Source: a virus
Taxonomy: Duplodnaviria > Caudoviricetes
Reading direction: 5' to 3' (one strand)
IMG/VR virus record: IMGVR_UViG_2823732373_000001
Location: 1-64,000 of that record
Length of the DNA stretch: 64,000 bases
Shown here: one piece after another, positions 36,987 to 58,231 of the stretch
Numbering within the stretch: position 1 is the first letter of the stretch
Layout: each line of letters opens with the position of its first letter
Notes under the pieces: model-generated
The model's input: only the letters and a program-made list of their open reading frames with translations
Databases searched by the model: none
Told to the model about the DNA's origin: nothing
Program-made: the position numbers and the translations under genes

Positions 36987-38693
36987 ACCTGTCCCCTGCT
37001 TCGCACCAGCCGGCGCCTTCAGCTTGAAGGTGCCCACCATCGGCGCCATGCCGAAACCGCGCGACGCCGCCACACGGATCTGCGCGGCTAGCCAGGTGTA
37101 GAGCAGCGCGTAGTGGAAGTGATCGTCGCCGTTGCTCGGCTTGTTCCACACCGACAGCTGCCCGTCTTCCGTCACCTTCTTTGAGCGCTTCGAGGCCGTC
37201 AACTGCGCCTTGATGTCCGGCAGGTCCGCCGTCTTGCGGATCAGGATCTTGCCGGCGCGCAGTTCATCCAGGAGCAGGTCAAGGGCTGCGTGCTTGTTGA
37301 CCGAGATCTGGCGTAGCGCCGTCTTGCCCTCCTTCTCGTTCTGCTCGCGCGACACCGTGTCGTAGATCGCGATGCCCTTCTTCGTGACGAAATAGGCCGC
37401 GAACAGGTTGCGATCGGTCTGCTGCAGGTTCAGCAGCGTCTCGACGTACGGCTGGGCATCGAGCACCTTCGAGGTGACCCGGTACTGCCGCGACAGCTCC
37501 GCATAGCGGCGGCGGAAGTCTCCGATGGGGATCTGCTCCGTGTGCACGATCACCAGCTCTTCCTTCGAGGTGATCCCCGCAACGAAGATCCGACAGATCA
37601 ACCCCATGTCGCCGCCGATGACGTGCGTCGAGAACGGCGACGTGTCCATCTCGATCAGTGCGTTGTCAACGTCCTGAGGCGTGATGCCCGAGTCGGCGTC
37701 CTCGGCTGTCAGGCCCAGGTTGAAATTTACGAAGTCGGCCCAGCGCGCGTAGCTTGTGCTCGCCTGCACCAGGTAGGAGATCGGGATCACGTTCGGCGCA
37801 TCGAAGGGCTGCACCTGGTAGCCGGCCGCAAGGTGTCGCTCCAGCGAGTTTTCCACTACCCACTCACGGTTCTCCGGCTGCAGGCTCGGCGCTTTGCCGC
37901 AGTGCGGGCACAGCAGCACAGCCTCTTCCCAACGGATGCGAGCTAACGTGGCCTTCGTGATCTTGCGCAGCTCGTCGTCGTAGCCGGGGATCTTGACGTG
38001 GTCGAGGTAGCTCGGGCAGAACTGGTGACCGCAGTGATGGCACTTCACGAAGTTCCAGTGCCGGCGGCTATCCTGGAACGCCGCGTCGATCGGGTCGCCT
38101 GGGTATGTCGGCGTCGACAGGTAGATGCGAATTTTGTGCGGCGAGTGCGTCAAGCGCGACTGAAACTGGCCCGCGATTTCCTGGTTGGCAAAGCTGTACT
38201 CGTCGAAGATCACCGCGTCGGCAGCCACCGAGATCGCAGCGGTGTCAGAGCTGGCGCCGCGGAAGTACAGGAAACCGCCGGCGCCGAGTTGCTTCACCTC
38301 GGCCGAGTCCGCCCCATCGCTGTTGCGCACGGCGGACCGAAGGAACGGCGACCCGTTGATGATCGGGTTCAGCCGCGTCTTCACGTACATCTGGCTGAAC
38401 GACGCCGTGGGGAAGACATAGATCAGGCTGAAGTTCTGCATGATCGACACCAACCCGAGCGCCAGGCGCAGCGAGGTCTCAGACATGCCCACCTGCGAGC
38501 ACTTGCGGATCACGATGATCTGCGACTCGTCGCTGAGGATTCGCTCCTGGAACTCGTGATCTTTGAAGCTGTACGGCTTGCCGTTGATGAAGGTCTCCGT
38601 CTCGACCCACTTGGCGAGATCCTTGCGCGTTAGCTTCCCGGACGTCGCCATCCGGATGCGTTGAACATGGCGTTTCCAGAGCTCGTCACTCAC
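36978..38693 (-). CDS. terL: Terminase large subunit, gpA-like
   Basis: KCSQVGMSE Walker A variant, IFDE Walker B, STPT, CxxC pairs, GGDMG, DDHFH. Confidence 0.93.
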   Translation of the reverse strand: MSDELWKRHVQRIRMATSGKLTRKDLAKWVETETFINGKPYSFKDHEFQERILSDESQIIVIRKCSQVGMSETSLRLALGLVSIMQNFSLIYVFPTASFSQMYVKTRLNPIINGSPFLRSAVRNSDGADSAEVKQLGAGGFLYFRGASSDTAAISVAADAVIFDEYSFANQEIAGQFQSRLTHSPHKIRIYLSTPTYPGDPIDAAFQDSRRHWNFVKCHHCGHQFCPSYLDHVKIPGYDDELRKITKATLARIRWEEAVLLCPHCGKAPSLQPENREWVVENSLERHLAAGYQVQPFDAPNVIPISYLVQASTSYARWADFVNFNLGLTAEDADSGITPQDVDNALIEMDTSPFSTHVIGGDMGLICRIFVAGITSKEELVIVHTEQIPIGDFRRRYAELSRQYRVTSKVLDAQPYVETLLNLQQTDRNLFAAYFVTKKGIAIYDTVSREQNEKEGKTALRQISVNKHAALDLLLDELRAGKILIRKTADLPDIKAQLTASKRSKKVTEDGQLSVWNKPSNGDDHFHYALLYTWLAAQIRVAASRGFGMAPMVGTFKLKAPAGAKQGTGLG

Positions 38694-42135: not shown

Positions 42136-42972
42136 TCAGTCCACCCACATGCCAATGACGGTCCCAAGCACCTTAAACTCCTCGCGGATGGGTTCGTGCT
42201 GTGGGTTCAGAGGCATCAGCCACTGCCGGCCATCCTCGTTCTTATAGATCTTGAACGTGACCTCGTCGCTGCCCTCCAGCTTCGCGATGATGCGATCGCC
42301 ATTGACCGGTCCACGCTTCTCTGGATCCACGTATATGAGACTCCCTTCCGGATAGCTTCGCTTGGCGCCGCCCGGTGCGGTCATGCTGTCACCGCGCACG
42401 CGAAGCACATAGGAGCTTGCGCTCATCGGTTTCGGGCTTGCGTACCAGCCCTCTGCATCCCCAGGCTCCAGATAGTCGTGGGCCGCATCCCACTTACCAG
42501 CTCTCACCCAAGAAATTAGTGGGAGAAGGCCCTTTGTTTCTGGGCCGGCTGAGACGTTCGAATGCGCCCCTTCCGCAAGCGGTGGAGTTCCCGGAAGCAC
42601 CGCCGTGGGGCCGGTACGCCTACGGACCATCGAGGGGTAGGCCTTTCTCACGTGATAGCTGACCGTGGCTTCAGCCATCCCAAATTGCATCGCGACGTCC
42701 GTGAGACTTAGCCCGTCACGAATTACCGCCATCACGTGAGGCGCTGTACGCAACTGTTCAGGGTCCAGTCTCGGTCGCTGCTCAATTTTTCCAGCCGCAA
42801 CAGCGTCCCGATAACGTGGATCCTTGTGAATGAGCCGTCGCAGTTGCGTCGGATCCACCTTCGGCGCGCCTATTCGCTCAGCCTCCTCCGAAGCTGCCCG
42901 TGCTTGGCTACTCACGGTCTCACCATTCAAGATGACCGCGTTAATATAAGGAGTCATGTCCAATGTGCGCAT
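42136..42972 (-). CDS. CI/LexA-like repressor with S24 autocleavage domain
   Basis: PLISWVRAG, LRVRGDSM, TFK; HTH LTDVAMQFGMAEATVSYHV; start may be 42957. Confidence 0.9.
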   Translation of the reverse strand: MRTLDMTPYINAVILNGETVSSQARAASEEAERIGAPKVDPTQLRRLIHKDPRYRDAVAAGKIEQRPRLDPEQLRTAPHVMAVIRDGLSLTDVAMQFGMAEATVSYHVRKAYPSMVRRRTGPTAVLPGTPPLAEGAHSNVSAGPETKGLLPLISWVRAGKWDAAHDYLEPGDAEGWYASPKPMSASSYVLRVRGDSMTAPGGAKRSYPEGSLIYVDPEKRGPVNGDRIIAKLEGSDEVTFKIYKNEDGRQWLMPLNPQHEPIREEFKVLGTVIGMWVD

Positions 42973-43154
42973 GCGCGCCATCATACACGAATTAGACACA
43001 ACAAAGACAAAGTTTGTGGATTTTTTCGCGGTTTGGACAGCCTCTGGAGCCTGACATCGCATGCAGTAGCACAAAAATCGGTACCCGTCAACAATAAGGA
43101 CGAGATCCACCAAATAAAACAGTCGGCGGAGAGCGTCTTTTTTATTTGTCTTAC

Positions 43155-43183
43155 TTGCTAAGCATGTCTTTTCCGTGCATAAT
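43155..43183 (+). promoter_or_regulatory. Sigma70-type early promoter
   Basis: TTGCTA-17bp-CATAAT in AT-rich region divergent from repressor. Confidence 0.6.
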
Positions 43184-43387
43184 CTAGGCATGGGTTCAGT
43201 GATCGCACCGCCCTAGCCCTAGTGGCTCTGCTCTTCCTTCAGGCTATGCGGACAACACCGTCCGCATGCGCTCTCCCCTTGTCCAAGCCATTGTCATGGC
43301 CCAAGGGCGGAGCTTTGCCTAGAGCGTTTTGCTCACGTACCGCAGGTACTTATCTCCAAGATAAGTAAGCAGCAAAGGAAAAGAGAA

Positions 43388-44263
43388 ATGACCAAAGCAA
43401 TTGTCGCAGCGCCGGCGCAAAAGGCGATCAGCGCGACCCGCGCAGAACTCGAAAGCGCCACCCTTGCCACCATCGCAGCCGCCTGCGGCGCAGCTGGTGC
43501 CAATCTCTCCGCCTTGAGCGGTGCAGCCAAGGCCTTGTCGGGGAGCGTCACCAAAGCAGTCCTGCGCGTCATCGCAAAGGAACGCATCGGCGACGTCATC
43601 GCCCCCCTTCGCGAAGCCATCGGCAACGCTGGCAAGGGTGTTAGCAACCTCTCCACCATCCGCACGGCCGTGCTCAAGATGCACGTTGCCTATGGTGACG
43701 GCATGGCCCCTGCCGCAGGCGGCGACAGTGCGACGGGCGACGTGAGCGACAAGGCACCCGAAGGCGCGCCGGTCGGCGCCAGCGAAAAGACCGGCCCCGC
43801 CCTCCCCGTGTGGGAGACCGTGAGCGAAGCCAAGGAAAGCGGCGATGCTGCAGTGACTGCGGCCGTGAGCGCCTGCATTTCTTACGCCGGCAAAACGGAT
43901 GCGGGCATCCCGATTGACCCGCGCATCGACACGACGGCGCGCGATGCACTCATGGCGCGCATCAATGCGGCGTGCGCTGCATTTGGCCTGTCTGAAGACA
44001 GCGCGGGCAAGGTTCGCGGCCTGTACTTCAGCGCACTGCAAACCATCGTCGCCGATGCAGAACTGGCGAGCGAGACGGCCGCCGCCAACGCTGAACAGGC
44101 ACAGCAGCAGGCCGACGATGCCGCGATCGTGGCCGACGCTCACGCTCAATTGCTGGCCGAAGTCGAAACCCTGCGCCAGATCGCGGCCGAAGCGAAGCGC
44201 ATTTTCGGAATCAAAACCGACGTCGATCTGCTGACGGAAATGAAGATCACGGACGCGGCTTGA
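43388..44263 (+). CDS. First early gene, Ala-rich hypothetical
   Basis: Purine-rich RBS, 291 aa, hairpin 44282-44306 downstream. Confidence 0.8.
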   Translation: MTKAIVAAPAQKAISATRAELESATLATIAAACGAAGANLSALSGAAKALSGSVTKAVLRVIAKERIGDVIAPLREAIGNAGKGVSNLSTIRTAVLKMHVAYGDGMAPAAGGDSATGDVSDKAPEGAPVGASEKTGPALPVWETVSEAKESGDAAVTAAVSACISYAGKTDAGIPIDPRIDTTARDALMARINAACAAFGLSEDSAGKVRGLYFSALQTIVADAELASETAAANAEQAQQQADDAAIVADAHAQLLAEVETLRQIAAEAKRIFGIKTDVDLLTEMKITDAA

Positions 44264-44375
44264 ACGCCCGCGACGACGACACCGACAAGGCCGAAACCCT
44301 TGTCGGGGTTGCCGCCTGCGCTCGCTGAGCGCAGACGACAGCCCTTCCCTTTTGGACGCGCACGGAGACCTGCGA

Positions 44376-44917
44376 TGAAGCAACCACGCTTATTGACCGC
44401 CAACGGTAAGGCCAAGGCCGTCAGCCCCAACGGGGGACCGCGCAGCGGCTTTGAGGTGGTGGACCGGAACGGTTTCGTGCGCCTGGTCGGCAGCATGGCC
44501 ACCGCTCCGCAGAACGATGCCGGCGTCTCGGACTTATCTCCGAGGTATGAGGAACTGGTCGACGGGGTGTGGCAGTCGGCTTCGTGGGCGACGCTGAGCC
44601 AGATCCGCCACCTACGCACGGACCGGGCCCGGCGCGCCTACTTCGCTGTGCGGGTTGGCCTGCTGCGTGAGCTGCCCGGGGATGCATACGGCGTCGTTGA
44701 CGGGGAGGCATGGTGCTGTCCCCGCGGGTATGACCGCGACCTCGACCGAGAGAAGTTTCTCGCCAAGGCGTTGAAGGTGGGATTGCTCTCGCTGCGCGGG
44801 CGCACCTACAAGGTCCGGGAAATCCGACCCGACACGATTCAGCTGACCCGCGCCTCGGGCAGCGTCAACTACACCCGTGAGGCGCTGCTGGAGAGCATCG
44901 CCAGCGGCACTGTCTAG
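44376..44917 (+). CDS. Hypothetical phage protein
   Basis: GGAG before ATG (MKQPR). Confidence 0.6.
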
Positions 44918-44938
44918 AACCACAACAAGGACATTGAC

Positions 44939-45223
44939 TTGGACGACAACTACGACTCGCGCCCCGTCAACGTCATCAGACTCGCGCTTGCCTGTGCGCA
45001 AGAGCGTCTGGGCATGTTTGACCCCGAGACCTGCCGCGATGATCACGACTTCTTCGTGGCCTACAACCGTGTGCAGACCTTGGAGGACGAGCTATTCACC
45101 GCCGAGGACCGCGCCCAGCGCATGGCCGAGCGTGTCGCCCAGAAATGGATGCATCGCTATGGCCCCCGACAACGTCGAGGCGGATTGGCGCTGATTCAGG
45201 AATTGATTCACGACTGGAACTGA
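44939..45223 (+). CDS. Hypothetical phage protein
   Basis: AAGGA RBS + TTG. Confidence 0.6.
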   Translation: MDDNYDSRPVNVIRLALACAQERLGMFDPETCRDDHDFFVAYNRVQTLEDELFTAEDRAQRMAERVAQKWMHRYGPRQRRGGLALIQELIHDWN

Positions 45224-45340
45224 GTCGTTGACGGTGATGTGAGCCGGCGGCACGCCCGGCGAGAGCGGCGCGCAGCGCCGCGGCCCTTGTCCTTGACGGG
45301 GCGATAACGCAGGCGCTGTGCGCCGACGTTGTCATTGGCA

Positions 45341-45365
45341 CTTGCCGCTTGCCGCTTGCCGCTTG
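45341..45365 (+). repeat. Short tandem repeat (CTTGCCG)x3.5
   Basis: cttgccg cttgccg cttgccg cttg. Confidence 0.8.
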
Positions 45366-45475
45366 ATGCCGACGTTGTCGGGGAACGAGCCCGCGCAGCG
45401 GGCGAGGGCCCTGGGCGAAAACCAATCCGAATTGCTTTTTGTTAGTGCCCATCAACTGGGCGCGGGGGAGAAGCC

Positions 45476-45730
45476 GTGTCCACAAAAACTGATCTACAGC
45501 GGCGCGTGAGCCAGCTCGAGGCAAAGGCGCGCGCCGACGCGCGACTCATCGAGTCGATGCGCACCGAGAACTACGACCTCCGCTGGCAGCTTGGACTGAC
45601 CGGCCAAGCGCAGGACGACCCCAACAAACCCTTCGAGCCCAACGGGCTGATGGGAGTGCCTGGCTACGTGCAGGACCTGAAGGTCCGCCTGAAGGCCGAA
45701 CTGAAATCCAAAGGAAGACGATATGCGTGA
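45476..45730 (+). CDS. Hypothetical phage protein
   Basis: GGAG + GTG; coiled coil. Confidence 0.65.
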   Translation: MSTKTDLQRRVSQLEAKARADARLIESMRTENYDLRWQLGLTGQAQDDPNKPFEPNGLMGVPGYVQDLKVRLKAELKSKGRRYA

Positions 45731-45998
45731 AATGCGTGACCGCGCGGCAGTCCTGTACGTGACCGTCGGCCCGTCGCCTCTGGGCATCCCCGTCAACGTC
45801 GGGGCCGGCGTGCCCCACTACGTCCCGACAACGCCAAAGGCATTGGCCCGGCGCCCGGCCGGCAAGCCAATCAGCCAGCTGTCGTCCATCGACCGCTTCC
45901 GCGAGGTCTTCCGCCCTGCCCCGGCGCGCCAGGCACCGACAACGTCGATGGGTCGGGCCTTGCGCTCGATCGAGAACTGGGTCGCCGACTGGCTTTGA
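45723..45998 (+). CDS. Hypothetical phage protein
   Basis: AAGGA RBS; overlaps previous gene. Confidence 0.55.
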   Translation: MREMRDRAAVLYVTVGPSPLGIPVNVGAGVPHYVPTTPKALARRPAGKPISQLSSIDRFREVFRPAPARQAPTTSMGRALRSIENWVADWL

Positions 45999-46369
45999 AT
46001 TTCGTCCGGGTTTAAAAGCCCCGACAAGGTCGAAAACGCCGGTTCAAGTGGCACTCAAGGTGTGCTGGTCGGCCAGGGGTGAGCAAGCCCTACCTTGTTG
46101 ATTTCAAAAGACATTCACTGAGATTAAAGAGAAAAAAAGAAAATCTATAAGTGCCGCGGGGTCGGGGTGCTCTCAAGAAAAACTTCAACTTCTCAGCCCC
46201 TCACACCCTTCATCGGTACCCCTCGCAGAACTGCACCCCAAGTGCCACTTTTTAGGCTCTTCCAGCCCAATAAATTCTCTGCACGGACAGGGACTTAGAT
46301 CCGGAATCGAACTCTGCGCAAACAGGTTTCAAGTGCCAATCGCCTCGCGCCTCTGGACTGACCTCGATC

Positions 46370-46774
46370 ATGAGCACCGCCCCGAACAAGAATCACCAAT
46401 GGGTCGCAGCCTTCGGGTATCCCCGGCGACTCGTCCTGCTTGCGCCGGGTCAGACGGGGTTGTTCCACGTGCGCCCAGTGCATGGGGCGTCCCTTGCGCA
46501 GGCCCGAAACACCCTTGGCGGCGTCTGCAAGGCTTGGGTGGCCCACAACACCGACTGGCACAAAGACTTCGGGCGCGGCGCAGTGCCGGCTGACTGCCTC
46601 ATCCACCGACCACACCCCGACGGCTTGCTCGTCGGCCGGAGACCGCTCATCACGGAACCGCCGCTGGACTTCGACAGGGCTCCCGACTACGTCTGGGACT
46701 TCACGCCGCCACCGCGTCGGCTCTCGTTCGCCGAGCGTCTCGAACAGATGCGCAAAGAGCGCGGCCTGGACTAG
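46370..46774 (+). CDS. Hypothetical phage protein
   Basis: 134-aa ORF in the early direction. Confidence 0.5.
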   Translation: MSTAPNKNHQWVAAFGYPRRLVLLAPGQTGLFHVRPVHGASLAQARNTLGGVCKAWVAHNTDWHKDFGRGAVPADCLIHRPHPDGLLVGRRPLITEPPLDFDRAPDYVWDFTPPPRRLSFAERLEQMRKERGLD

Positions 46775-47155
46775 CTCCGGCCCACAAACAGAACTGCTGT
46801 CACGCAGCGCGCCGGGCGCCCCGACAACGACGACCGTACGGACCATGACCGCGAGCACCGGAACCAACCGGGGCCCGGCTTGAGTCGCGACCTTCGCCGT
46901 TGAGGGGATCCCGCCCGGCGCACCCGGCTGCGCATGACCTTGACCACCCCGCCCTTGCTGGCGGCCTCGTCGCCTCTGAGCGCCGACGTCGAACCCGGCG
47001 CAGAGCGATCTGCATAACAGGAGGAGCTGCCATGCACACCTTACCCGCATGACCTGCCACGACAGTTAGAGATCTATTCGCTTCGGCAGGAGTTCTCCGC
47101 CGACTGCGCGGTGGAGCGCCCAAGGGCGCAAGCGCGACGTTCGGCAAAGCCGATC

Positions 47156-47740
47156 TCAGGCAAAAACTTCGAAGAGATATTTGATAAGTGCGCCAGCGGC
47201 TGCACCAGCAACCGCTATTCCGAGCTTGCGCGGCGTCGAATTCGCCTTACTCAGCTCGTCACGCATCTCGTCGATACGCTCTGCTTGCCTGGCTGAATTA
47301 GCCGATAGCTCGGACAAAGATTTTTCAATAGAAGCATTAGAAACGCGGCTTGATCGTATTTCGTCCGCACTTAGCGGGCGAATAGATGTGCCGTACCTTG
47401 CGTAGTACCCGCCAGAGGACGTTACCAACGAGGGTGACTTTTGCACCTCCACATAGGTCACGTCAACGTTTCCGTGCTTCACCACTCCTGATTGCACGGA
47501 GATTTTCGGATGAAGCTTTTCCAGTGCGGCGGAAATTGCCTGCTCCGCCCTTTTGGAATTTACTCCAACTACTGTCGACGGCTCCTTAACTCCGATAAGG
47601 AGAATGCCGCCTTTGGTATTTGCAAACGCAGCCAAATGGCTCGCGATCACGTCTGGGTTTGGCACAGACGTCTTTAGCTCAAGAGTCGGGCTCTCGCCCG
47701 CGGCCACAAGTCGATCTATATCGATTTTCTCTAACGCCAT
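47156..47740 (-). CDS. Schlafen/AlbA_2 domain protein with coiled coil and C-terminal TM helix
   Basis: GESPTLELK, AAFANTKGG.LLIGV, YARYG; low GC; antisense. Confidence 0.88.
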   Translation of the reverse strand: MALEKIDIDRLVAAGESPTLELKTSVPNPDVIASHLAAFANTKGGILLIGVKEPSTVVGVNSKRAEQAISAALEKLHPKISVQSGVVKHGNVDVTYVEVQKSPSLVTSSGGYYARYGTSIRPLSADEIRSSRVSNASIEKSLSELSANSARQAERIDEMRDELSKANSTPRKLGIAVAGAAAGALIKYLFEVFA

Positions 47741-47828
47741 AACTTCCCCTCCAATTTTTTTTTAAAGCTTTTGGCTGAAGGAATGTAACGCAGAAATCAC
47801 ACAGCCTTCGCGATCTGAGCACGTATCA

Positions 47829-48188
47829 ATGACACTCCACCCCGACAAGATCAATCCCATCATCCTGGCCATGTTCGTCTGGCAAGGCTTCATGGAAGCC
47901 GAGCCGTGGGGCGACGAGGCTGCGGACCAGCACGGTGGCCAGATCGGCGCGGCCTGTAACCTGGCCCCCTACGTCGAGATCCTCGCCGATTCGATCAACG
48001 CGTTTCTGGCGACCGACCCCGACACCGACTTCCCGGGCGTGCTGGACTACGAGGTCACCGAACGCTTCGGCGCCTGGCTGCGCCTCAACCCAACAGCCAG
48101 TACCCGCGGCGCGCGCGCCGAGGCAGACAAGCTGGTCGAGTCGTTCTTTGCGGCTCGCAACAGTTGCGCGATCGGGGTCTCGTCGTAA
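47829..48188 (+). CDS. Hypothetical phage protein
   Basis: Phage-like codon usage; FPGVLDYEV. Confidence 0.7.
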   Translation: MTLHPDKINPIILAMFVWQGFMEAEPWGDEAADQHGGQIGAACNLAPYVEILADSINAFLATDPDTDFPGVLDYEVTERFGAWLRLNPTASTRGARAEADKLVESFFAARNSCAIGVSS

Positions 48189-48300
48189 TCGCAATGCACA
48201 TGCACCAGTTCAAGGTGTGCTTCGTACCGCGCCAACTCGTGATCGGACTCGGAAGCGTCGAGGTTTGGCGGGTTGCCGGCCTCGAGCGCCACGAGTGGGC

Positions 48301-48582
48301 CTACCCTGCCATGGGTAGTAGCGACTGAAGGCCCCGCTTCTTCCGGCTCTCGTCAATCTCTTCGATGAGAGTCTGAAGTTCGTCCAGCCGATCGCAGCGA
48401 CGTTTGATATCACCGTCTTTCGCGTGGATGACCAGAGCACCACCACGACGAATGCCCTCTGCGGCGCCTACCAGCACGCTCGCAACAGGGATGACTGATT
48501 GGCTGTTGGACATGTCATCCCACGTCTGTTCAACCACCCAGATTTTTCCGTCATCGAAATGGACCATGCTTCTGATTGACAT
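48301..48582 (-). CDS. Small antisense hypothetical protein
   Basis: Lower GC ORF MSIRSMVHFDDG…. Confidence 0.6.
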   Translation of the reverse strand: MSIRSMVHFDDGKIWVVEQTWDDMSNSQSVIPVASVLVGAAEGIRRGGALVIHAKDGDIKRRCDRLDELQTLIEEIDESRKKRGLQSLLPMAG

Positions 48583-48780
48583 TGTTTGCTCGGGCTTGAA
48601 TTGATACGTTAAAGCCGCAGCCAAGAGTGGCATCGGTCTCACGGAATTGAAGCATAGCTACAGCTGAAAAGGCCCCGAGCTAACCCCATTCGCCCGTCAC
48701 CGCCAACCGGCCCCGACAACGTCGACGGTCGCGTTGCGGCGTGGTGGTCCCCGGCAACTTCAACACACCAAGGAAACAAC

Positions 48781-49239
48781 ATGCACACCTTCAAAGTCAC
48801 CCCCCTTCAACGCGCCAACGCCCTGCACGCCCTCAACGACTTCTGGCCAACCATCAAACCCGAGCAGGTCTCCGGGCGGCTCAACTACTGGCGCACCGAA
48901 AGGGATTGCGAAGGCGAGCCCGAATTCGTCGACTTCGATGCGCCGCCCACCTGCGGCACCGTTGCATGCTTCGGCGGGTGGGTCGAATGGCATGCCCCAT
49001 TCCGCCGGCAGATGGGTCTGAACCCCGACAAGGGCGAGGCGGACATCGAGGCCCTGCACGGGTTGTTCGGCACGGACAGTGATTCACACACGCTAAACAT
49101 CTTCGCCGAGCGCAATTGGGGTTTCGACGGGGACATCGGTTTCGAAGGCTCCGACCACGAACTCGTCTCACACCGCCTGCGCTGGCTGATCGACCACAGC
49201 GAGATGTCTGCTTGCGCTGTTGGCACGAGTGCAGATTGA
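48781..49239 (+). CDS. Hypothetical phage protein, CGTxACxGGW motif
   Basis: AAGGA RBS; CGTVACFGGW. Confidence 0.8.
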   Translation: MHTFKVTPLQRANALHALNDFWPTIKPEQVSGRLNYWRTERDCEGEPEFVDFDAPPTCGTVACFGGWVEWHAPFRRQMGLNPDKGEADIEALHGLFGTDSDSHTLNIFAERNWGFDGDIGFEGSDHELVSHRLRWLIDHSEMSACAVGTSAD

Positions 49240-49392
49240 ATCGAATTTACCGCCATCGTTGGAGAGGTCGACTTGCTTGGCCCGATTGGCATCGGGCACG
49301 CCGCGCAATGCGGGAAGCCCCATCATCAATGACTACGTTGCCGCTGCCAAGCGGACACTAGTGCCAATGTGGCCTCGGCAACACTGCTGCCG

Positions 49393-51864
49393 TCACACTC
49401 GCGCTATTCCCAGACAACATTTTTTGAACTTCTTGCCTGAGCCGCAGGGACATGGCTCGTTTCGACCAACCTTCGACGTTTTCAGAAGCGCAGTTTCAAC
49501 CCTGGCCTCTCGAAGCGAGGCTGCCAATGCTTCAAGTTCGGGGCGCTCGCAAAATGGGATCTCTTCGAGCCGAAGCCACTGCCACCTCGCGTCAATCACG
49601 TCTCGATTTTCATCAAACCTCAGTTCGAGGAGCACTCTGTCCGGCTCCTTATGCATGACCAACAACGCCTTCGCATGTTTGACCATATCCGCCCACTGGG
49701 ACTCACCCCAGGTTTGGGCGACCGGGAAGGCTGTCAAGCGCACCTCACCATGACTGGAGAAGGGACGTGGCTGCGCATCAGGAGAACGTCCGATCTCTTG
49801 CTGCAACGTGTTGAAAAACCTGTCGCGCCACTCGCCACTCATATCGAGTACATAAGCTGCAATCGCAGATCGATGCGCCTCAGCGCCGTTCTGAAGTATC
49901 TCGAGGAGCTTTGCCATGCCCGCCGGCATCTTTTGCCGCAGGGGGGTCGGCACTTCTTCGCCCAGCAGCCGCGCGCCAAAGAACTTGTCAATCTCCTCTC
50001 GATATCCGAGAAATTGCAGATCAGTCCGCCCGCCTCCCGCGAGCTCCTCGGCATGCTGGGCGTAATGGTTATGTCGCAGATATAACCCTAGATGGTCTAA
50101 CTCATCATCCAGTTGTAACCGTGTTGATTTGTAGGCCTCTTTCCGCTGCTGAACGAAGTGCAGAAACTCGAGGGGGTTGGTAAAGATATCTGCGTACACG
50201 CGCAAGTCGTCCAAAGAGAGCGACCAGATTGGATTTACCCCCACCTCCACGCCGATGGTGGACAGACGCTGAGCTTGGGCCGCCAGTTCCGTAAAGGGAT
50301 CAAGCGTGATGGCGCACACGGTGACCTCGCGGAAGTCCTTGAGGCGGACTCTAAGCAGCTCACTTCCGTCGGCATGAAAAATTGGGACTTCCTCTGCCGA
50401 TTGCAAATACCTTAAAAAGCGATGTCCTTGCTGCGCGGGTGCAGCGACCAGGGCCTTCAACGATTTCACATGGGCGTCCACATCAGTGGCAGGTGACGTG
50501 TGGGTGAACGCACCAGCCTTGACCTCGATGATGAGCAGGTGGTCGTCGAACATCAGTATTCCGTCAGTCTCATAGCGACTCGCCGGTTTTCCGTGCTCGC
50601 TCATCCAGTAGTACACCGCTTTGAAGCAGATCGCTCCGGGCAGCAGACGATCAAGATAAGAAAAAGGAAGTGACTCGGTTACTTCCTTTCGTGCATCTAT
50701 CCATCGTTGCTTCTGATCTTTCCCTATCGCAAAGATCTTCTTCTCAAGGTGCCGATAGAAGTGGTCAAACAATGTAGTTTGATCAAAGCAGTAGTAGCGT
50801 TTGTCGATCTTGATAAATGGCCGCTTGAAGGTTGGCCATACCCTTAGGGGCCAACCACTGAAATCACCTTCGCCGAAAAATTCTGTGTCCTGCCCCGGGC
50901 CCCAAGAAAAATCCTCCAGAAATGCCGGGGGCAGATTTGTCACTTTCTGCAGATCGAACAAATCAAACCCCAGAAATAGTCCCGCCGCGCGCTCCTGCTC
51001 CTCCCTGAGGCCGTGACGCGCAATCGAATCTTGCAACTTCTGTTTGATATCGCTTCCTACTGCGAGTCCGGCCTTCAGATCGGCATCAAGGCAAGCCAAC
51101 GACTTAGTTCTGAACGCGTCCATTGCTTCAACTGCATCCCCTATTCCCGTGGTGTGCGCATTCCAGACTTTTTGCAGTTCATCACACAGACCTCTGGCAC
51201 TCAATCCATAGAGTTCGAAGATCAGATCGCTTTTGGGGTCTAGTAGCTCTCGCAGCGCTTGAATCTGATGGTTCTGGTACTGCTCTCCAGTTACGTTGCA
51301 CCAGTAAAGCTGAGCGCGGAAGTGAAACTCCTCGAATGCAGCATCAACACTAGCCGCATTTTTCCGACGCGAAGCAGTCGCGCAGACAAAATACGTTAGG
51401 TTGAGCTTCTCAAAGATCTCTTTCACCAGGCCACGGAGCTCATACCACTGGTCATCTGTGGGCTGTTCGAAAGACGGATTCACTGGCACGACGCTTACGA
51501 CCAGGCTCTGAACGTAATCAATCATTCTGGTCGCGATCACCTGCTCCGCTTGGATCTCGATTTCACTCGATATACCCATCAAGGCTGCACTCCTTTCCCA
51601 CCAAGCTCGATGAAGTAACAAGAGTGGATTCAAGGAGGCCGTTAACGAAGCGGCCTTCGCGATGCTCGCGTCAATCTCTCTGACGACATCGTGCAGCCCT
51701 GCGGCTAGCCGCTCCTGCATCTTCTGGAATTCTTCTGGTTGCCAATGAACTTGGCTAACCATGTGCCGTCCGTACCTAGCCATCTGCAGTGGGCCTGCAC
51801 TGAACACCTCATCCGGCTCACGCATCTGCCGGAAGGCGCTAGACCTTTTACGCTTTTTTCTCAT
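49393..51864 (-). CDS. NERD/PD-(D/E)xK nuclease-like protein with C-terminal SEC-C zinc motif
   Basis: ETDGI...IIEVKAG; GRNEPCPCGSGKKFKKCC; antisense. Confidence 0.85.
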   Translation of the reverse strand: MRKKRKRSSAFRQMREPDEVFSAGPLQMARYGRHMVSQVHWQPEEFQKMQERLAAGLHDVVREIDASIAKAASLTASLNPLLLLHRAWWERSAALMGISSEIEIQAEQVIATRMIDYVQSLVVSVVPVNPSFEQPTDDQWYELRGLVKEIFEKLNLTYFVCATASRRKNAASVDAAFEEFHFRAQLYWCNVTGEQYQNHQIQALRELLDPKSDLIFELYGLSARGLCDELQKVWNAHTTGIGDAVEAMDAFRTKSLACLDADLKAGLAVGSDIKQKLQDSIARHGLREEQERAAGLFLGFDLFDLQKVTNLPPAFLEDFSWGPGQDTEFFGEGDFSGWPLRVWPTFKRPFIKIDKRYYCFDQTTLFDHFYRHLEKKIFAIGKDQKQRWIDARKEVTESLPFSYLDRLLPGAICFKAVYYWMSEHGKPASRYETDGILMFDDHLLIIEVKAGAFTHTSPATDVDAHVKSLKALVAAPAQQGHRFLRYLQSAEEVPIFHADGSELLRVRLKDFREVTVCAITLDPFTELAAQAQRLSTIGVEVGVNPIWSLSLDDLRVYADIFTNPLEFLHFVQQRKEAYKSTRLQLDDELDHLGLYLRHNHYAQHAEELAGGGRTDLQFLGYREEIDKFFGARLLGEEVPTPLRQKMPAGMAKLLEILQNGAEAHRSAIAAYVLDMSGEWRDRFFNTLQQEIGRSPDAQPRPFSSHGEVRLTAFPVAQTWGESQWADMVKHAKALLVMHKEPDRVLLELRFDENRDVIDARWQWLRLEEIPFCERPELEALAASLREARVETALLKTSKVGRNEPCPCGSGKKFKKCCLGIARV

Positions 51865-52248
51865 CGCCTGATGGTGCCAGTGATCGGCAAACGATGCATC
51901 AGGACCGATACGTGTAAGTCGGGGCATGAACCGCTTGGCGGCCAACAGCGAGACCGAATTGCACACCTACCGGAACACACCACGTACATCCAACGGAATA
52001 AAAACATACGAGGGGTTCATGACTGCGCGAACCAACCCTTGCACGTGAGGACTTTCGCGATGGGCGGTGGGCGCCCCTCGACGTGCTGACGACCCGCCCC
52101 CGCCCTCCTTTGAACAGTGCCGCTGGCCACCTCAACGTGCAACGCCAGCACCCCGCCCCGACAACGTCATAGACCACAAAGGCCGACCTGGCTGCAACCA
52201 GGAAAGCTGGCCGGCGGCGTTGGTCGGGGCACCTATTCACCACCCGAG

Positions 52249-52275
52249 GGGCTGTCTCTAGAGACAGCCCTTTTT
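52249..52275 (+). terminator. Intrinsic terminator
   Basis: GGGCTGTCTC-TA-GAGACAGCCC-TTTTT. Confidence 0.75.
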
Positions 52276-52374
52276 CGTTTCGGAGACTCAAATGAAATTC
52301 GCATACCTCGCGGCCTGCAAAGGCCACCTCGTGCCCGTGTTCCGCCGCCTCCACCGTCACCCGGTGCGCTGAAC

Positions 52375-52746
52375 ATGGACAACCAGCAGTTCTTCGACAA
52401 GACCGTCGCCTTCCTCCGTACACAGGGCGAGGCCGCCGTCACTGCCAACGGCGCATGCCGCTACCGCACTTCACCGTCCGAGGACAGAGTTCTCATGTGC
52501 GCTGTCGGCTGCCACATCCCCGACAACGTCTACAGCTCGGGTTTCGAGGGCGTCTCTGCGAGCGAGCTGCTTCGCGTCAGCAATGACGTGTGCGCGCTGT
52601 TCGGCGGCGTCGACAGGGCCCTGATCGAAGCAATGCAGCTCGCACACGACGACGGCCTCGCCGTACACGGCTTGCACGCATTCGAGGATCAGGTCGAGAA
52701 CATCGCCTTCGACTACGGCCTCAAGTACATCACGCCAGAGGCCTGA
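52375..52746 (+). CDS. Hypothetical phage protein
   Basis: QG...CRYR...CAVGCHI...LAHD pattern. Confidence 0.75.
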   Translation: MDNQQFFDKTVAFLRTQGEAAVTANGACRYRTSPSEDRVLMCAVGCHIPDNVYSSGFEGVSASELLRVSNDVCALFGGVDRALIEAMQLAHDDGLAVHGLHAFEDQVENIAFDYGLKYITPEA

Positions 52747-52747
52747 C

Positions 52748-53161
52748 GTGGCAATCAAACTCGAGGCCCTCACCGAACACGAGCGCGATGCGTTCTGGTC
52801 CGCCAACTTGCAGCACGCACTCAAGCTGCTGGCTACCGTGAAGGACAGGCAGGTGGACCTGAATCTCTGGTGCGCAGACACCGAGTGTGGAACGATCGCA
52901 TGTTTCGGCGGCTGGTGCGCGATCGATCCGTACTTTCAATCTCTCGGCGTCAGCCTTCACAAGGCAGGTCGGTATCCGGTGATCGAAGACCTCTACTTGT
53001 ACGACTTCGAGGTCTCTAACTACCTGTTCGGCGAGGAAGAGCTGTTCCAACCGCGTCACGCGTATACCGAATTTACCGATAGCACGCGAGACATGTCCGA
53101 TCGCGAGATCGCTATTCGCCGTGTTACGCAGCGGCTGCGCGAACTAGGCGCCGAGGCTTGA
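52748..53161 (+). CDS. Hypothetical phage protein, CGTxACxGGW motif
   Basis: CGTIACFGGW; GAGG + GTG. Confidence 0.75.
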   Translation: MAIKLEALTEHERDAFWSANLQHALKLLATVKDRQVDLNLWCADTECGTIACFGGWCAIDPYFQSLGVSLHKAGRYPVIEDLYLYDFEVSNYLFGEEELFQPRHAYTEFTDSTRDMSDREIAIRRVTQRLRELGAEA

Positions 53162-53200
53162 CGAGCCACAGCCTTACAACAATGGCCGCTTGGAGCCCAA

Positions 53201-53788
53201 TCAAACTTCGATTGCTGACTTGGTAGGGGGCAATAGGGCCAACTTCATCTTCTCGTAGTTGTCCCGAATATTTTTGATGTGACGATGAATGTTGTCGCAC
53301 CAGACTTTGTCACGCGCCAGCGAGTCACCCTCCGCGCGGTCTGAGTCCGTTCTCTTGCCCTTACCCGAATCCCAGTCGTGAACTGCATTGCGCAAGAAGA
53401 CCAACTGGTCGCGCAGATCAAGCAGAGCTGCAGCCGCCTCCGCAGATCCCACTTCATGCGCAGGAATTGCACTCACCGCTGCGACGCGGCTCTCGATCAC
53501 TGAAGGGTGATATTCATCGAAGAATTTGGCCCTGGAAATCGGCTGTGTAGAGAAGATCTGCCCTACCGCCTCTGCCCTATCTGCACACATGCGGGCAATC
53601 TCCAGGATTGCCGCGCGCCGGCCCCGCTCAGCATCCTCCGCGAGCAACCGGGAGTTGCTCAAGGCGGCCGAGGACTGTGACCTCCCAATCCAGAAGGCCG
53701 CAAATATGGTCGCAATCGCACCGAGCGTCTGCATCCACGACGCCAAACCTGGATGCCCTTCGATCCAGCACAAAAAGCCATCGCACAT
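53201..53788 (-). CDS. Antisense N-terminally membrane-anchored protein
   Basis: AAGGAG RBS; ASWMQTLGAIATIFAAFWI. Confidence 0.75.
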   Translation of the reverse strand: MCDGFLCWIEGHPGLASWMQTLGAIATIFAAFWIGRSQSSAALSNSRLLAEDAERGRRAAILEIARMCADRAEAVGQIFSTQPISRAKFFDEYHPSVIESRVAAVSAIPAHEVGSAEAAAALLDLRDQLVFLRNAVHDWDSGKGKRTDSDRAEGDSLARDKVWCDNIHRHIKNIRDNYEKMKLALLPPTKSAIEV

Positions 53789-53862
53789 GGTCGCTCCTTA
53801 AACCCGCCCGCGAGATTGGGCGCTAGGTCGAAGTATGCCGACACCCCGACAACGACAACCCC

Positions 53863-53887
53863 AAAGCCCGCCTCGAGCGGGCTTTTT
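53863..53887 (+). terminator. Intrinsic terminator
   Basis: AAAGCCCGC-CTCGA-GCGGGCTTTTT. Confidence 0.8.
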
Positions 53888-53906
53888 CATGCCTGAAAGG
53901 ATTTCG

Positions 53907-54623
53907 ATGCACCACATCAAACTCGCCCCCCTGCTGATCGCCAGCTGCCTCGCTGCGTGCGGCGGCGGTGGAGGCGGCTCCCCGAGCATGCCGCTCCTCC
54001 CGTTTGCTGCCGCACCGATCGAAGAAGCCCCTGCGCCCACACCTGCTAAACCGGACTGCTCGGTTGCCCTGTACGGCGATTCGATCTTGCATGGGGCCTA
54101 CAACGACGCAGTTGGAGAGCAACGACTGGCCGAGCCGCCGGCGGCCGCCCTGAAGCGGCTGCGCCCGGCGTACGCCGTCTTCGACTACACACTGTCCGGC
54201 CAGTCGGCGCGCGCGCTGTCGGCCACCTTCAACAGCTTGACCCGCACCGCGAAGGTCGTCGTGATCGAGAGCGGCGTGATCGACGCCTGGCGTAACGACC
54301 CGCCGATCGACACCGTCAAGGCGATGGCCGAGTACGCCCGGGCCGAGGGCCGCATCGTGATCATCACGGGCTTCTCGCATACGCTGGTCTCGACCCGCAT
54401 GGGCATCACTGCGGAAGGCATCGCGCGTCGCGACGAAACGAATCGAGCCATGCGGGCAATGGCGTCGGCCGCGGGCTTCGGATTCGCCGACTTTGGTGCG
54501 GCCGCATTCGATGCGGGCTCCGTAGCGGACCTGATCCACCCAGGCCAGGCCTACTCGCTGCGTCTGGTTGAGCAACTCATCGCTGCGCTGGACAAAGCCG
54601 CACCGGAGTGCCGCCAAAGCTGA
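53907..54623 (+). CDS. SGNH/GDSL hydrolase lipoprotein
   Basis: Lipobox LAA-C, YGDS, SGQ, DLIHP. Confidence 0.85.
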   Translation: MHHIKLAPLLIASCLAACGGGGGGSPSMPLLPFAAAPIEEAPAPTPAKPDCSVALYGDSILHGAYNDAVGEQRLAEPPAAALKRLRPAYAVFDYTLSGQSARALSATFNSLTRTAKVVVIESGVIDAWRNDPPIDTVKAMAEYARAEGRIVIITGFSHTLVSTRMGITAEGIARRDETNRAMRAMASAAGFGFADFGAAAFDAGSVADLIHPGQAYSLRLVEQLIAALDKAAPECRQS

Positions 54624-56495: not shown

Positions 56496-57242
56496 ATGCA
56501 TGCAATCAAGGAGCGGGCGCGCAAGACGCCCTTCGACCCGGCGCCTGAGCCGGCCACCTTCCGCTACCACTTCACCCGCGTCAGCGGAAATCAGAAGACC
56601 GGCCCGATGCCTGTCACGACGACAAGCAGCAACTCGTGCCCGCCCACCTGCAGTTTCAAGAAGAACGGCTGCTACGCCGAGCACGGCCCGCTTGCCATTC
56701 ACTGGCGACAGATCGATTCAGGCAAGCGCGGCACCACCTTCGAGGAGCTACTCGCTGACGTCGAGACCATCCGCCGCAACGCACTCTGGCGTCACAACCA
56801 AGCGGGGGACCTGACCCCCTCAACGCCGGGGAACATCGATGGCCAGCTTCTCACGCGGCTTGCCATCGCGAACAAGGGGCGACGCGGCTTCACATACACG
56901 CACTACAAGCCGACGCCGCACAACCGTGCTGCGATTCGGACCGCGAACCTGATGGGGTTCACGGTCAACCTCAGTGCCGAGACGTTCGACCAGGCCGACG
57001 AGTACGCGGAGATCGGCATCGCGCCCGTCGTCGTCGTGCTGCCGGCCGACGCTACTAAAGCGGCGAAGACTCCCGCAGGCCGACACGTCATCGTCTGTCC
57101 CGCCGCCACCGGCAACACCGACTGCCTGAACTGCGGAATCTGCCAAGACCGCGACCGCAAGTCGATCGTCGGATTCCCCGCGCACGGCAGCGGCCTGAAG
57201 AGGGCCCAGGCCGTGTTCTTCCTCAAGAAAGAGCGAGCATGA
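56496..57242 (+). CDS. Cys-rich phage protein (Gp88/DUF7227-like, possible Fe-S enzyme)
   Basis: NQKTG, CPPTC......CYA, RHNQAGD, FTYTH, NLS, CP......CxxCxxC. Confidence 0.65.
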   Translation: MHAIKERARKTPFDPAPEPATFRYHFTRVSGNQKTGPMPVTTTSSNSCPPTCSFKKNGCYAEHGPLAIHWRQIDSGKRGTTFEELLADVETIRRNALWRHNQAGDLTPSTPGNIDGQLLTRLAIANKGRRGFTYTHYKPTPHNRAAIRTANLMGFTVNLSAETFDQADEYAEIGIAPVVVVLPADATKAAKTPAGRHVIVCPAATGNTDCLNCGICQDRDRKSIVGFPAHGSGLKRAQAVFFLKKERA

Positions 57243-57934: not shown

Positions 57935-58231
57935 TTGGGAAAATTGATCGCAACGAGGGCCTTCGAGGCTGAGCTGATCCTCGAAGGCAGCTGGGGTACG
58001 CGCCAGCTCGGCAAGCACCCCTCCTCCATGGAGCTGTGGGAGCGCGACGACCCAGGCTGCTATTTCATCGAGTGGGACATCCCGCACATGGATCGCACCG
58101 AGGAGATCGGCATCTGGGTCGACCGCGGCTCTAAGGAACTCATCGACTACGACGGCGTGTTCTCCCTGCCGATCCAGGCCATCGCACTGCTCGAAGAGAA
58201 CGGCATCAAGGTGGGGGCCGACTTCCATTGA
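57935..58231 (+). CDS. Hypothetical phage protein
   Basis: GGAG + TTG; DYDGVFSLP. Confidence 0.7.
   Translation: MGKLIATRAFEAELILEGSWGTRQLGKHPSSMELWERDDPGCYFIEWDIPHMDRTEEIGIWVDRGSKELIDYDGVFSLPIQAIALLEENGIKVGADFH

Follow-up and report, generated by a model that had tools for sequence, protein, structure and literature searches.

What reads a 13-bp word that recurs, mostly in one orientation, along the early genes of a temperate phage, and to what effect? The question arises from a stretch of 64,000 nt (hereafter the window), the first 64 kb of an 86,351-bp IMG/VR provirus record (IMGVR_UViG_2823732373_000001). A first-pass annotation of the window had noted the word and proposed that it marks binding sites for a phage protein that silences or organizes the early region, or else sites of RNA pairing or recombination. 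We find that the word is highly non-random and specific to a rare prophage lineage of Variovorax-type hosts, and we tentatively interpret its copies as polar protein sites on duplex DNA.

A 13-bp Word Is Enriched in the Early Arm

The consensus CCCCGWCAASGWC has 12 matches in the window, between positions 44693 and 53856, where 0.02 are expected; a count of 12 was reached in 0 of 100 shuffles. A pattern scan of the window placed all 12 sites at the coordinates and on the strands first reported, including five exact copies of CCCCGACAACGTC (45164, 48711, 52156 and 52518 on the plus strand and 45371 on the minus strand), and the same scan of positions 1 to 44692 returned zero exact matches, in agreement with the by-eye impression that the first 44 kb hold no perfect match. 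The copy at 45788 indeed extends to a 17-nt pseudo-palindrome, CCCCGTCAACGTCGGGG. Near copies that had been listed at 45224, 45823, 45934, 47840, 48017 and 49023 score 12.6 to 15.9 bits with a weight matrix built from the 12 sites, and the one at 59554 reads TCCCGACGACGTC, with two mismatches. Applied to the whole 86-kb record, the weight matrix gives a bimodal distribution, with 13 strong sites at or above 19.9 bits and all else at or below 16.5.

The record is organized as follows. The promoter, the arm limits and many gene calls are predictions of this analysis, and transcription direction was taken from gene orientation.

About 10.4-39.1 kb, minus strand: late genes
36978-38693: gpA-type large terminase, in the late, minus-strand gene block
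42136-42972, minus strand: CI-like cleavable repressor with an S24 peptidase domain
43155-43183, plus strand: predicted rightward early promoter, TTGCTA-17-CATAAT, with an aligned -10 element conserved in all five phages compared below
43388 to about 80 kb, plus strand: run of rightward genes, the early/replication arm, about 37 kb
62228-63859, plus strand: SNF2 helicase, early arm
82501-84042: integrase, adjoining a host relA/spoT gene

The early arm further encodes a 957-aa primase-like protein, an exonuclease, a deoxynucleoside monophosphate (dNMP) kinase, a family-A DNA polymerase (PolA) and SbcCD-like proteins. What had been called the early region is the first quarter of this arm. The 10-base core CCCCGWCAAS has 17 matches in the window against 0.65 expected, and k-mer counts likewise show an 11-base core to be commoner than the 13-mer. 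The whole record has 22 core sites, 15 of them on the plus strand; they extend from 43.5 to 78 kb, with one more at 38984 in the late arm, and those beyond the window lie at 64630, 67861, 73901, 76657 (minus strand) and 78128. Thus, the motif marks the whole arm, and the earlier reading had caught its densest part: enrichment in the early arm stands, but the strict pattern and the edge of the window partly account for the apparent limit to 44.7-53.9 kb.

The Word Is Shared by Five Syntenic Phages and Is Missing from Their Late Arms

Searches with gene 1 and the terminase retrieved two IMG/VR contigs, G1 (82 kb) and G2 (73.5 kb), and a prophage on two contigs of Variovorax paradoxus ISL-3. The remaining relative, which brings the set to five phages, is a prophage in genome G539 (Variovorax sp. 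PBS-H4 according to a protein match) that was exposed by a motif count over 148 Variovorax genomes. The five phages are syntenic, with nucleotide identities of 65-90%, and all four relatives carry the identical word in the same manner as the window phage. The lineage is otherwise sparsely represented. The terminase alignment also gave a record with a 21.7-kb stretch 100% identical to G1 and two short contigs of 47% identity that have no early arm; the gene-1 alignment gave no further relatives in viral, genome or metagenome contig sets; a family-level sample of 401 genomes held the gene-1 family in genome G006 only; and the gene-2 family numbers 11 proteins among 5.8 billion. No close DNA relatives were found among cultured phages, either by megablast of 42-54 kb or by tblastn with gene 1. 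The terminase and the primase-like protein match only distant phages at 23-30% identity (Vibrio SHOU24-like, Pseudomonas UAntarctica and PMBT3), and a scan of phage UAntarctica (81 kb) for an analogous oriented word produced nothing comparable, the best 11-mer having six copies on one strand versus none on the other.

The five early arms (207,651 bp in total) hold 54 13-mers on the plus strand and 17 on the minus strand, against 0.30 expected under a third-order Markov model, and 90 plus and 29 minus 10-base cores, against 3.95 expected. Each arm carries 10-21 copies of the 13-mer and 20-31 of the core. The five late arms (136,903 bp) hold no 13-mer, and their cores (0 plus, 2 minus) compare with 1.75 expected.

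These sites define the word sharply. The consensus CCCCGWCAASGnC specifies 12 of its 13 positions: when each position was relaxed in turn over the five phages, positions 1-11 and 13 gave 108 consensus matches against at most 14 for any other base, and position 12 is merely T-biased. Position 6 is A in 89 sites, T in 19, G in three and C in one, and position 10 is C in 90, G in 18 and A in one. The flanks of the copies are not conserved. Positions 6 and 12 do not co-vary, since T/T and A/A occur as well as A/T, and the word is no palindrome; this lack of covariation indicates that the motif is not a hairpin and led us to reject a structured RNA as its basis.

The Word Is at Chance Level in Host Chromosomes

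The 6.6-Mb genome of V. paradoxus ISL-3 contains 23 matches, 16 of which lie on the two prophage contigs, leaving seven in the remaining ~6.5 Mb. Among the 148 Variovorax genomes the counts listed are mostly about 2-10 per genome, level with a reversed-word control, and the highest totals, in G006 (23) and G539 (27), are prophage-derived. There is accordingly no over-representation across Variovorax chromosomes, in ISL-3 or in the 148 genomes, of the kind seen for host-wide words such as Chi, FtsK-orienting polar sequences (KOPS) or DNA uptake sequences (DUS). A comparable density in the host or in late genes, or a lack of conservation in relatives, had been named in advance as evidence that would count against a phage-specific function; instead, the ISL-3 background is low, the late arms have no 13-mer and four relatives share the word. 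The word also serves as a compact marker for locating this prophage lineage, having revealed the G539 prophage; the protein search of the 401-genome family sample had located the lineage in G006 only.

In the main text of the papers listed by a literature search, the 13-mers and their complements do not occur as biology. String matches were incidental, comprising one reverse complement in flounder quantitative PCR and cytomegalovirus vaccine studies and 10-mers in unrelated papers. A search on Variovorax, prophage and repressor showed nothing on the motif among the papers listed.

Selection Acts on the Nucleotides of the Word

Grouped by sequence context, the five phages' 125 core sites form 95 clusters, which indicates that most sites were not inherited within one conserved gene. 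Downstream of the motif the sequence shows a three-base periodicity, and the preferred frame, xxC-CCC-GAC-AAC-GTC, reads P-D-N-V; this frame is used by 40 of the 58 plus-strand sites inside rightward genes. The tetrapeptide could in principle be the selected entity. However, all 30 occurrences of P[DV]N[VGADE] in the early proteins (51,648 codons) are written CCCCGWCAASG, even though CCC accounts for only 33% of Pro codons, and this uniform nucleotide spelling rules out a peptide origin of the motif. The late proteins (40,018 codons) contain a single P[DV]N[VGADE], which is not motif-encoded, and reversed intragenic copies use the rare codon GTT (7% of Val codons). Selection thus acts on nucleotides, not on the peptide.

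The sites are retained more often than their surroundings and yet turn over quickly: 35.6% of 180 orthologous site pairs are fully kept, against 13.7% of 4,091 control windows, and the number of sites per genome holds at 20-31 despite this rapid positional turnover.

As a separate observation, the G539 prophage (L052, reverse strand; P5rc 78283-78331) contains three tandem motif copies at 18-bp spacing, the repeat unit being caccgc plus the motif, which if translated would give a repeated T-A-P-D-N-V hexapeptide.

Copies Run with Transcription Outside a Reversed-Copy Hub

The strong sites of the record, with four core-only copies of the early arm, are as follows.

43531-43543, minus strand: core-only copy CCCCGACAAGGCC, inside gene 1; 14.9 bits
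44296-44308, minus strand: core-only copy, between genes 1 and 2
44693-44705, minus strand: CCCCGTCAACGAC, in gene 2 (44375-44917), written with the rare Val codon GTT; 22.4 bits
44962-44974, plus strand: CCCCGTCAACGTC, 23 nt into gene 3 (94 aa), read P-V-N-V; orthologous copy in G1
45164-45176, plus strand: exact copy close to the 3' end of gene 3, paired convergently with weak 45224(-)
45289-45301, minus strand: CCCCGTCAAGGAC, in the non-coding element
45371-45383, minus strand: exact copy within the non-coding element; the conserved hairpin GAGCCCGCGCAGCGGGC follows after 5 nt
45788-45800, plus strand: CCCCGTCAACGTC, in gene 5 (45723-45998), the copy that extends to the 17-nt pseudo-palindrome
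46019-46031, plus strand: CCCCGACAAGGTC, intergenic, 21 nt past the gene 5 stop
46819-46831, plus strand: intergenic copy preceded by a conserved CTGCTGTCACGCA hairpin, an arrangement found in 5/5 phages
47840-47852, plus strand: core-only copy CCCCGACAAGATC
48711-48723, plus strand: exact copy, intergenic, 58 nt upstream of the ATG at 48781 and directly after a low-GC block with a leftward gene
49023-49035, plus strand: core-only copy CCCCGACAAGGGC
52156-52168, plus strand: exact copy, intergenic, after the leftward gene for an 857-aa protein and 77 nt before a strong terminator-like hairpin (52246-52273)
52518-52530, plus strand: exact copy inside a rightward open reading frame (ORF), read P-D-N-V
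53844-53856, plus strand: CCCCGACAACGAC, probably intergenic, followed by a terminator-like hairpin at about 53860-53884
76657, minus strand: thirteenth strong site, outside the window

The 44693 copy has same-place copies in G1 and the ISL-3 prophage, and the 45164 copy is kept at the same place in the ISL-3 prophage despite a different reading frame. By a by-eye reading, the G1 copy that matches 46019 is followed by a hairpin and a T-run. The 53844 copy is placed outside a coding sequence on the grounds that the gene for a GDSL-lipase lipoprotein probably starts at a later ATG, the lipoprotein-like signal following the later Met. Directly after the gene 1 stop, a weak copy at 44280(+), CACCGACAAGGCC, and the core copy at 44296(-) form a perfect 9-bp inverted repeat (CCGACAAGG / CCTTGTCGG), from which it follows that paired copies can also serve as a stem-loop.

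The 90 plus and 29 minus cores of the five early arms place 76% of sites in the sense orientation (binomial p = 1.9e-8). The earlier statement that copies mostly follow transcription is therefore upheld as to polarity, but the minus copies, rather than being scattered, gather within the arm's first ~2.6 kb. In four phages the first 2.6 kb hold eight plus and 13 minus copies and the rest 64 plus and nine minus, so that beyond this region roughly 88% run with transcription. Intergenic DNA makes up 15.4% of the arms and holds 30 of the 119 sites (19 plus, 11 minus); several of the plus copies immediately follow a stop codon or precede a start, and most of the minus ones belong to a conserved non-coding element. 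Among the sites listed, full copies are confined to rightward-transcribed or arm-intergenic DNA. Accessory genes that are clearly leftward and low in GC, among them the two in the window, carry no motif copy, and copies resume immediately past such genes (48711 and 52156).

The conserved non-coding element forms the core of the reversed-copy hub.

45224-45475: conserved non-coding element with three reversed copies (45224, weak; 45289; 45371), defined by a four-phage alignment

Within it, two GC hairpins with GCA loops separate the reversed copies, and next come a TTGTTAGTGCC..CAAC block, which is conserved, and the gene 4 start. In the fifth phage a similar cluster of reversed copies lies between genes 1 and 2. 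No Rfam family matches the element, and over the motif copies Rfam gave only sub-threshold Trp-leader and isrK hits at 53804-53890 (27.3 and 22.9 bits; gathering thresholds 41 and 50).

Farther along, the non-coding stretch 46780-46900 is present in 5/5 phages and comprises a small hairpin, CTGCTGTCACGCAG, a motif copy and a ~70-nt conserved segment with a CCGG..CCGG stem. It has no Rfam match and could be a small RNA or another protein site.

Two simple classes of site do not account for this layout. We rejected a sigma-70 or phage promoter in either direction: aligned over 95 independent sites with flanks to 45 nt, the word has no A/T-rich hexamer beside it, the only signal being codon periodicity, and without a second element at a fixed distance it does not qualify as a sigma-70-type promoter. 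Among the proteins scanned, none belongs to a single-subunit RNA polymerase family. The comparison with iteron or parS clusters, offered initially, does not fit either, given the wide spread of the sites over about 35-37 kb and their irregular spacing even where densest (269, 202, 125, 82, 417, 231 and 800 bp); the proteins scanned include no ParB or Rep family.

The sense bias could also reflect a co-transcriptional signal, recognized in nascent RNA or the non-template strand, that carries polymerase through the terminators and inserts of a 37-kb operon in the manner of nut-, put- or ops-like antitermination, or that marks mRNA for processing or stability. We regard this as rather improbable. 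It would explain the restriction of the listed full copies to rightward-transcribed or arm-intergenic DNA, their 76% sense orientation, their return right past the leftward inserts at 48711 and 52156, and the intergenic copies at 52156 and 53844 just upstream of terminator-like hairpins; in the G539 prophage, the copy at 72775 precedes two hairpin-plus-T-run stretches by a by-eye reading, and the reversed copies near the arm start could, speculatively, mark a leftward PRE-like transcript toward the repressor gene. However, no leftward promoter is predicted near 45.4 kb, and the reversed copies are conserved and written with rare codons. A general link between sites and downstream hairpins was discarded as weak, the folding energy downstream being only marginally below that of the control (-18.0 vs -17.0 kcal/mol, p = 0.03). 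Nor do the A/T and C/G swaps have a rationale in RNA or single-strand reading, and with positions 6 and 12 not co-varying no hairpin is available for recognition. The scan of the proteins turned up no antiterminator family, NusG/KOW-like or other. Systems of the nut, put and ops kind use one or few sites, and the 20-30 sites here exceed that number.

The hub instead invites a reading in terms of replication or recombination polarity, to which we give little credence. Here the mixed cluster at 45.2-45.5 kb would be an origin bound by a phage initiator, for example the 957-aa primase-like protein, and the co-oriented copies would act on forks, priming or SbcCD/exonuclease recombination, or would provide micro-homology for module exchange. 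The change of orientation near a conserved non-coding element that has hairpins and a stretch richer in A/T is consistent with it, as are the phage's own PolA, SNF2 helicase, primase-like protein and SbcCD, and fast turnover at a held density resembles Chi- or KOPS-type words. The recombination part of the first proposal gains slightly from the ends of homology blocks, which lie within 30 nt of a site in 38 of 448 cases (8.5% vs 3.3% of random positions, 2.6 times), although the ends are not independent, 91% of them lie away from sites and gene boundaries could explain the modest excess. A word linked to forks or strands should moreover mark the late arm too, yet the 136.9 kb of late DNA contain no 13-mer, and the orientation switch is not clean, with plus copies at 44962 and 45164 to the left of the reversed cluster. 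Thirteen bases are also long for a primase or Chi-type word.

Strand bias would further be expected of site-specific strand marks, whether localized nicks of the T5, phiKMV or tf type or targets of a DNA-modifying enzyme. Phages of these types carry localized nicks at consensus words, and the replication module seen here (PolA, SNF2 helicase, SbcCD and dNMP kinase) resembles that of T5. The scanned proteins yielded no hit to a nickase, HNH or methyltransferase family, however, and the sites occupy only one genome half with a quarter of them on the other strand, so that we consider such marks very improbable.

The Immunity Repressor Is Probably Not the Reader

Two candidate readers had been put forward, the repressor at 42136-42972 and the protein encoded at 43388-44263. 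In its C-terminal domain the repressor shares 43-49% identity with lambda CI, and the repressor's structural model has two N-terminal helical domains (pLDDT about 80-90). Of these parts a fold search confirmed the lambda-CI-like C-terminal domain alone, and matches to the N-terminus were weak (E above 0.07). Compared with that of G0, the repressors of the relatives are 72%, 72%, 40% and 40% identical, giving two classes in five phages. Between the repressor gene and gene 1, the intergenic region has TAGAC/GTCTA repeats in G1 and G2rc (six each) and GCACAG/CTGTGC repeats in the ISL-3 (seven) and G539 (six) prophages, against 0.2-0.4 expected; the window phage's own promoter region (42973-43387) has one TAGAC and looks like a third variant, AGACA/TGTCT. 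Because these class repeats surround a predicted promoter with a conserved -10 element, they are likely operators, and the way they track the repressor classes suggests heteroimmune groups.

The 13-mer is identical in phages whose repressors are 40% identical and whose promoter repeats are of different types. This invariance speaks indirectly against the proposed role of the repressor, and the CI-like immunity repressor is probably not the motif reader. Cluster A stoperator motifs, by comparison, reportedly co-evolve with immune specificity. The 43388-44263 protein fares no better as a candidate, since family and Atlas searches link it to no DNA function.

One further word in the immunity region bears on this question.

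43082-43094, plus strand: (T)ACCCGTCAAC(A/G), a word resembling the motif, some 100 nt upstream of the predicted early-promoter start; relation to the motif uncertain

At the matching place the other four phages keep TACCCGTCAACG amid divergent DNA, and the window phage has a two-mismatch form.

According to PMC9283540, the L5-type stoperators of Cluster A mycobacteriophages are more than 20 asymmetric 13-mers, oriented with transcription and active in one orientation only, which are bound by a monomeric repressor with two DNA-binding domains; L5 itself is a temperate siphovirus with stoperators throughout its genome. True stoperators in the present lineage would require that the CI-like repressor bind the 13-mer via its N-terminal domain 1 while domain 2 reads the class-specific promoter repeats, so that elongation through the early arm is blocked in the lysogen. 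The length, asymmetry, copy number and orientation of the motif match those of L5 stoperators, the two modeled N-terminal helical domains recall the two-domain monomeric Cluster A repressor, and the other four phages have the motif-like TACCCGTCAACG in their immunity intergenic region, where the window phage has the two-mismatch form. Domain 1 is also better conserved than domain 2 (28/54 vs 17/52 between G0 and the ISL-3 prophage), and for this reason the repressor may read the motif through domain 1. We nevertheless doubt this explanation. The motif stays invariant while the repressors fall to 40% identity and the promoter repeats switch type, and if the repressors of all relatives stopped all early arms, diverged promoter operators would not alter immunity. 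Because such cross-action would make the divergence of the promoter operators pointless, the reader is probably another conserved factor. In addition, the predicted promoter has no overlapping site. The C-terminal domain of lambda CI is dimerizing and cooperative, and a domain of this type does not suggest a monomer on asymmetric sites.

A Tentative Model: Polar Protein Sites on Duplex DNA

The variation that the word tolerates bears on what kind of molecule reads it. The tolerated changes at positions 6 and 10 are A/T and C/G transversions rather than wobble-compatible transitions, which disfavors the RNA pairing that had been suggested. A/T and C/G swaps look alike in the duplex minor groove, and their tolerance thus fits protein reading of double-stranded DNA better than RNA pairing; we regard it as the strongest sign of such reading. 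If the word is read as duplex DNA, its strand bias must reflect polar action, as with stoperators or Ter sites.

Of the original proposals, binding sites that silence or organize the early region therefore remain the best reading, since the motif is phage-specific, kept, polar and of duplex-type degeneracy; it is the readers proposed for them that lack support. What the sequences show is the motif with its enrichment, polarity, confinement to one arm, conservation in relatives and selection at the nucleotide level; its reading by a protein as duplex DNA, the effect on transcription and the choice of reader are our interpretation. We tentatively favor, at somewhat less than even odds, polar, stoperator-like protein sites on duplex DNA that act on early-arm transcription and are read by a factor other than the immunity specificity domain. 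From sequence comparison we infer that the 13-bp word would be the duplex-DNA recognition site of a sequence-specific protein conserved across the prophage lineage. Its sites, about 20-30 per genome, would constitute a polar array along the rightward early/replication arm, with the mixed-orientation cluster surrounding the conserved non-coding element near the arm start. The bound protein would act directionally on RNA polymerase moving through the arm; as a stoperator-like roadblock or an insulator, it would hold the early genes silent or shut them down and would set them apart from the accessory genes that run leftward. The reader would presumably not be the specificity-determining part of the CI-like immunity repressor.

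Several observations weigh against such polar protein sites. No full site overlaps the predicted early promoter, unlike in L5; the late arm has no sites, whereas L5 sites lie throughout the genome (PMC9283540); and 30 of 119 sites are intergenic, whereas stoperators are mainly so. The turnover is fast, with 64% of orthologous pairs not fully kept, which is more like the density words Chi and KOPS than like fixed operators. Codon cost may explain part of the intragenic strand bias, as the P-D-N-V frame uses common codons. The better conservation of repressor domain 1 leaves some probability to the immunity repressor as reader. As to other readers, Pfam and PHROGs searches of about 55 ORFs showed no DNA-binding family in the early arm. 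The fold predicted for the gene 2 product was unusable (pLDDT 49), and its profile had no match in the PDB. Atlas searches with genes 1 and 2 gave no usable gene-2 hit and, for gene 1, a top score of 0.88 with none at or above 0.9, which makes these leads only.

A bolder version of the model, which we hold to be unlikely, is that the reader is not the immunity repressor but a conserved DNA-binding protein of lytic-cycle or accessory function, to which the word serves as a strand-polar 'address word' across one genome half, including more than 30 unrelated coding sequences in which it would impose a P-D-N-V tetrapeptide. The reversed-copy hub would then set the polarity switch, and the system would exert an immunity-independent, arm-wide control of transcription or of transcription-replication traffic. 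Control independent of immunity would account for a word common to heteroimmune relatives.

Other Conserved Elements and Accessory Genes

The leader of gene 1 contains a hairpin at 43286-43320 whose stem shows paired substitutions between phages (GCCAT/ATGGC, GCCAC/GTGGC, GCCC/GGGC) and which is followed by an invariant AAGGGCGGAGCTTTGCC; it may act in the early operon as a leader RNA element. Directly before the gene 1 ribosome site lies an 8-bp inverted repeat, ACTTATCT..AGATAAGT (43345-43365), at the place of which two relatives have a different palindrome, CTGTCTTGCAAGACAG; repeat type and gene 1 type correspond.

The genes for a DUF7227 protein (E 2e-97; window 56496-57242), with 83-87% nucleotide identity across the lineage, and a DUF7220 protein (G000 70439-70693) rank with the lineage's best-conserved early genes. 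Proteins common to all five phages comprise the products of genes 1, 2 and 4, the 98-, 85-, 100- and 201-aa proteins at 57935, 58709, 59762 and 61622, the DUF7227 protein and the primase-like protein. Lower-GC accessory genes are inserted in the early arm at 47156-47740(-), 49393-51966(-) and 53835-54623(+). They encode a protein with a Schlafen/AlbA_2 domain, one of 857 aa with a SEC-C motif at its end and a GDSL-lipase whose signal peptide is lipoprotein-like, and the inserts look like defense or lysogenic-conversion cargo. In the left flank, outside the region common to the relatives, a 1539-aa RHS-repeat protein and small downstream ORFs (2115-6734, minus strand) probably represent a host polymorphic-toxin locus or prophage-end cargo.

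Comparison with Known Systems

To our knowledge, oriented multi-copy words occur in few phage groups, and only the mycobacteriophage stoperators have a mechanism, the repeats of T1 being unexplained. With L5 stoperators the present array has in common asymmetric 13-mers, more than 20 sites (the core numbers 20-31 per arm) and orientation with transcription. It differs in occupying the early arm only, as opposed to the whole genome (PMC9283540). No site lies at the predicted early promoter, and three quarters of the sites are intragenic, imprinting P-D-N-V on the encoded proteins. The word is invariant across repressor classes, and the repressor is lambda-CI-like and cleavable. Judged in this way, the array departs from stoperators in two defining features, promoter sites and presence in both arms, and probably in a third, the repressor as reader.

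Phage T1 and Citrobacter phage Stevie have 16-20 oriented asymmetric 22-bp repeats, mainly intergenic, for which PMC4319613 gives the role as unknown. These repeats are likewise asymmetric, oriented with transcription and found in phages of Gram-negative bacteria, but they are 22 bp long, mostly intergenic, unrelated in sequence and carried by virulent phages.

Other classes of dispersed site share fewer properties with the array. The C1 operators of P1 are asymmetric and dispersed, lie at promoters that serve separate operons and bind the immunity repressor; asymmetric sites are dispersed over a temperate phage genome in both cases, but those described here are mostly intragenic and not promoter-linked, with no -10 element at a fixed distance. 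Chi and KOPS are host-wide oriented 8-mers read by host motors, whose density is kept while positions turn over. The present word is also short and oriented, with density held as positions turn over, but it is at chance level in the host chromosome and confined to half a phage genome. The ops/RfaH and nut/N systems are sense-strand signals in long operons, upstream of terminators, in one or few copies; the array resembles them in strand and setting but has many copies and duplex-type degeneracy, and no NusG-like or N-like gene was found in the proteins scanned.

We did not see described elsewhere the restriction to one arm, the embedding in coding sequence with an amino-acid imprint, the reversed-copy hub or the invariance across immunity classes. 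The array lies in an almost unsampled proteobacterial lineage of temperate phages (five genomes here), and its sharp 12-position word, one-arm presence, reversed-copy hub and natural heteroimmune relatives that share the word make it readily testable. If the 'address word' reading were true, the array would represent a novel form of directional control, acting across a whole arm, in a temperate phage that infects Gram-negative bacteria. If the reader were a second, immunity-independent silencer or traffic controller, the finding would show a DNA signal strongly shaping proteins, as in the 30/30 tetrapeptides, and the stoperator idea, known so far through repressors, would extend beyond them.

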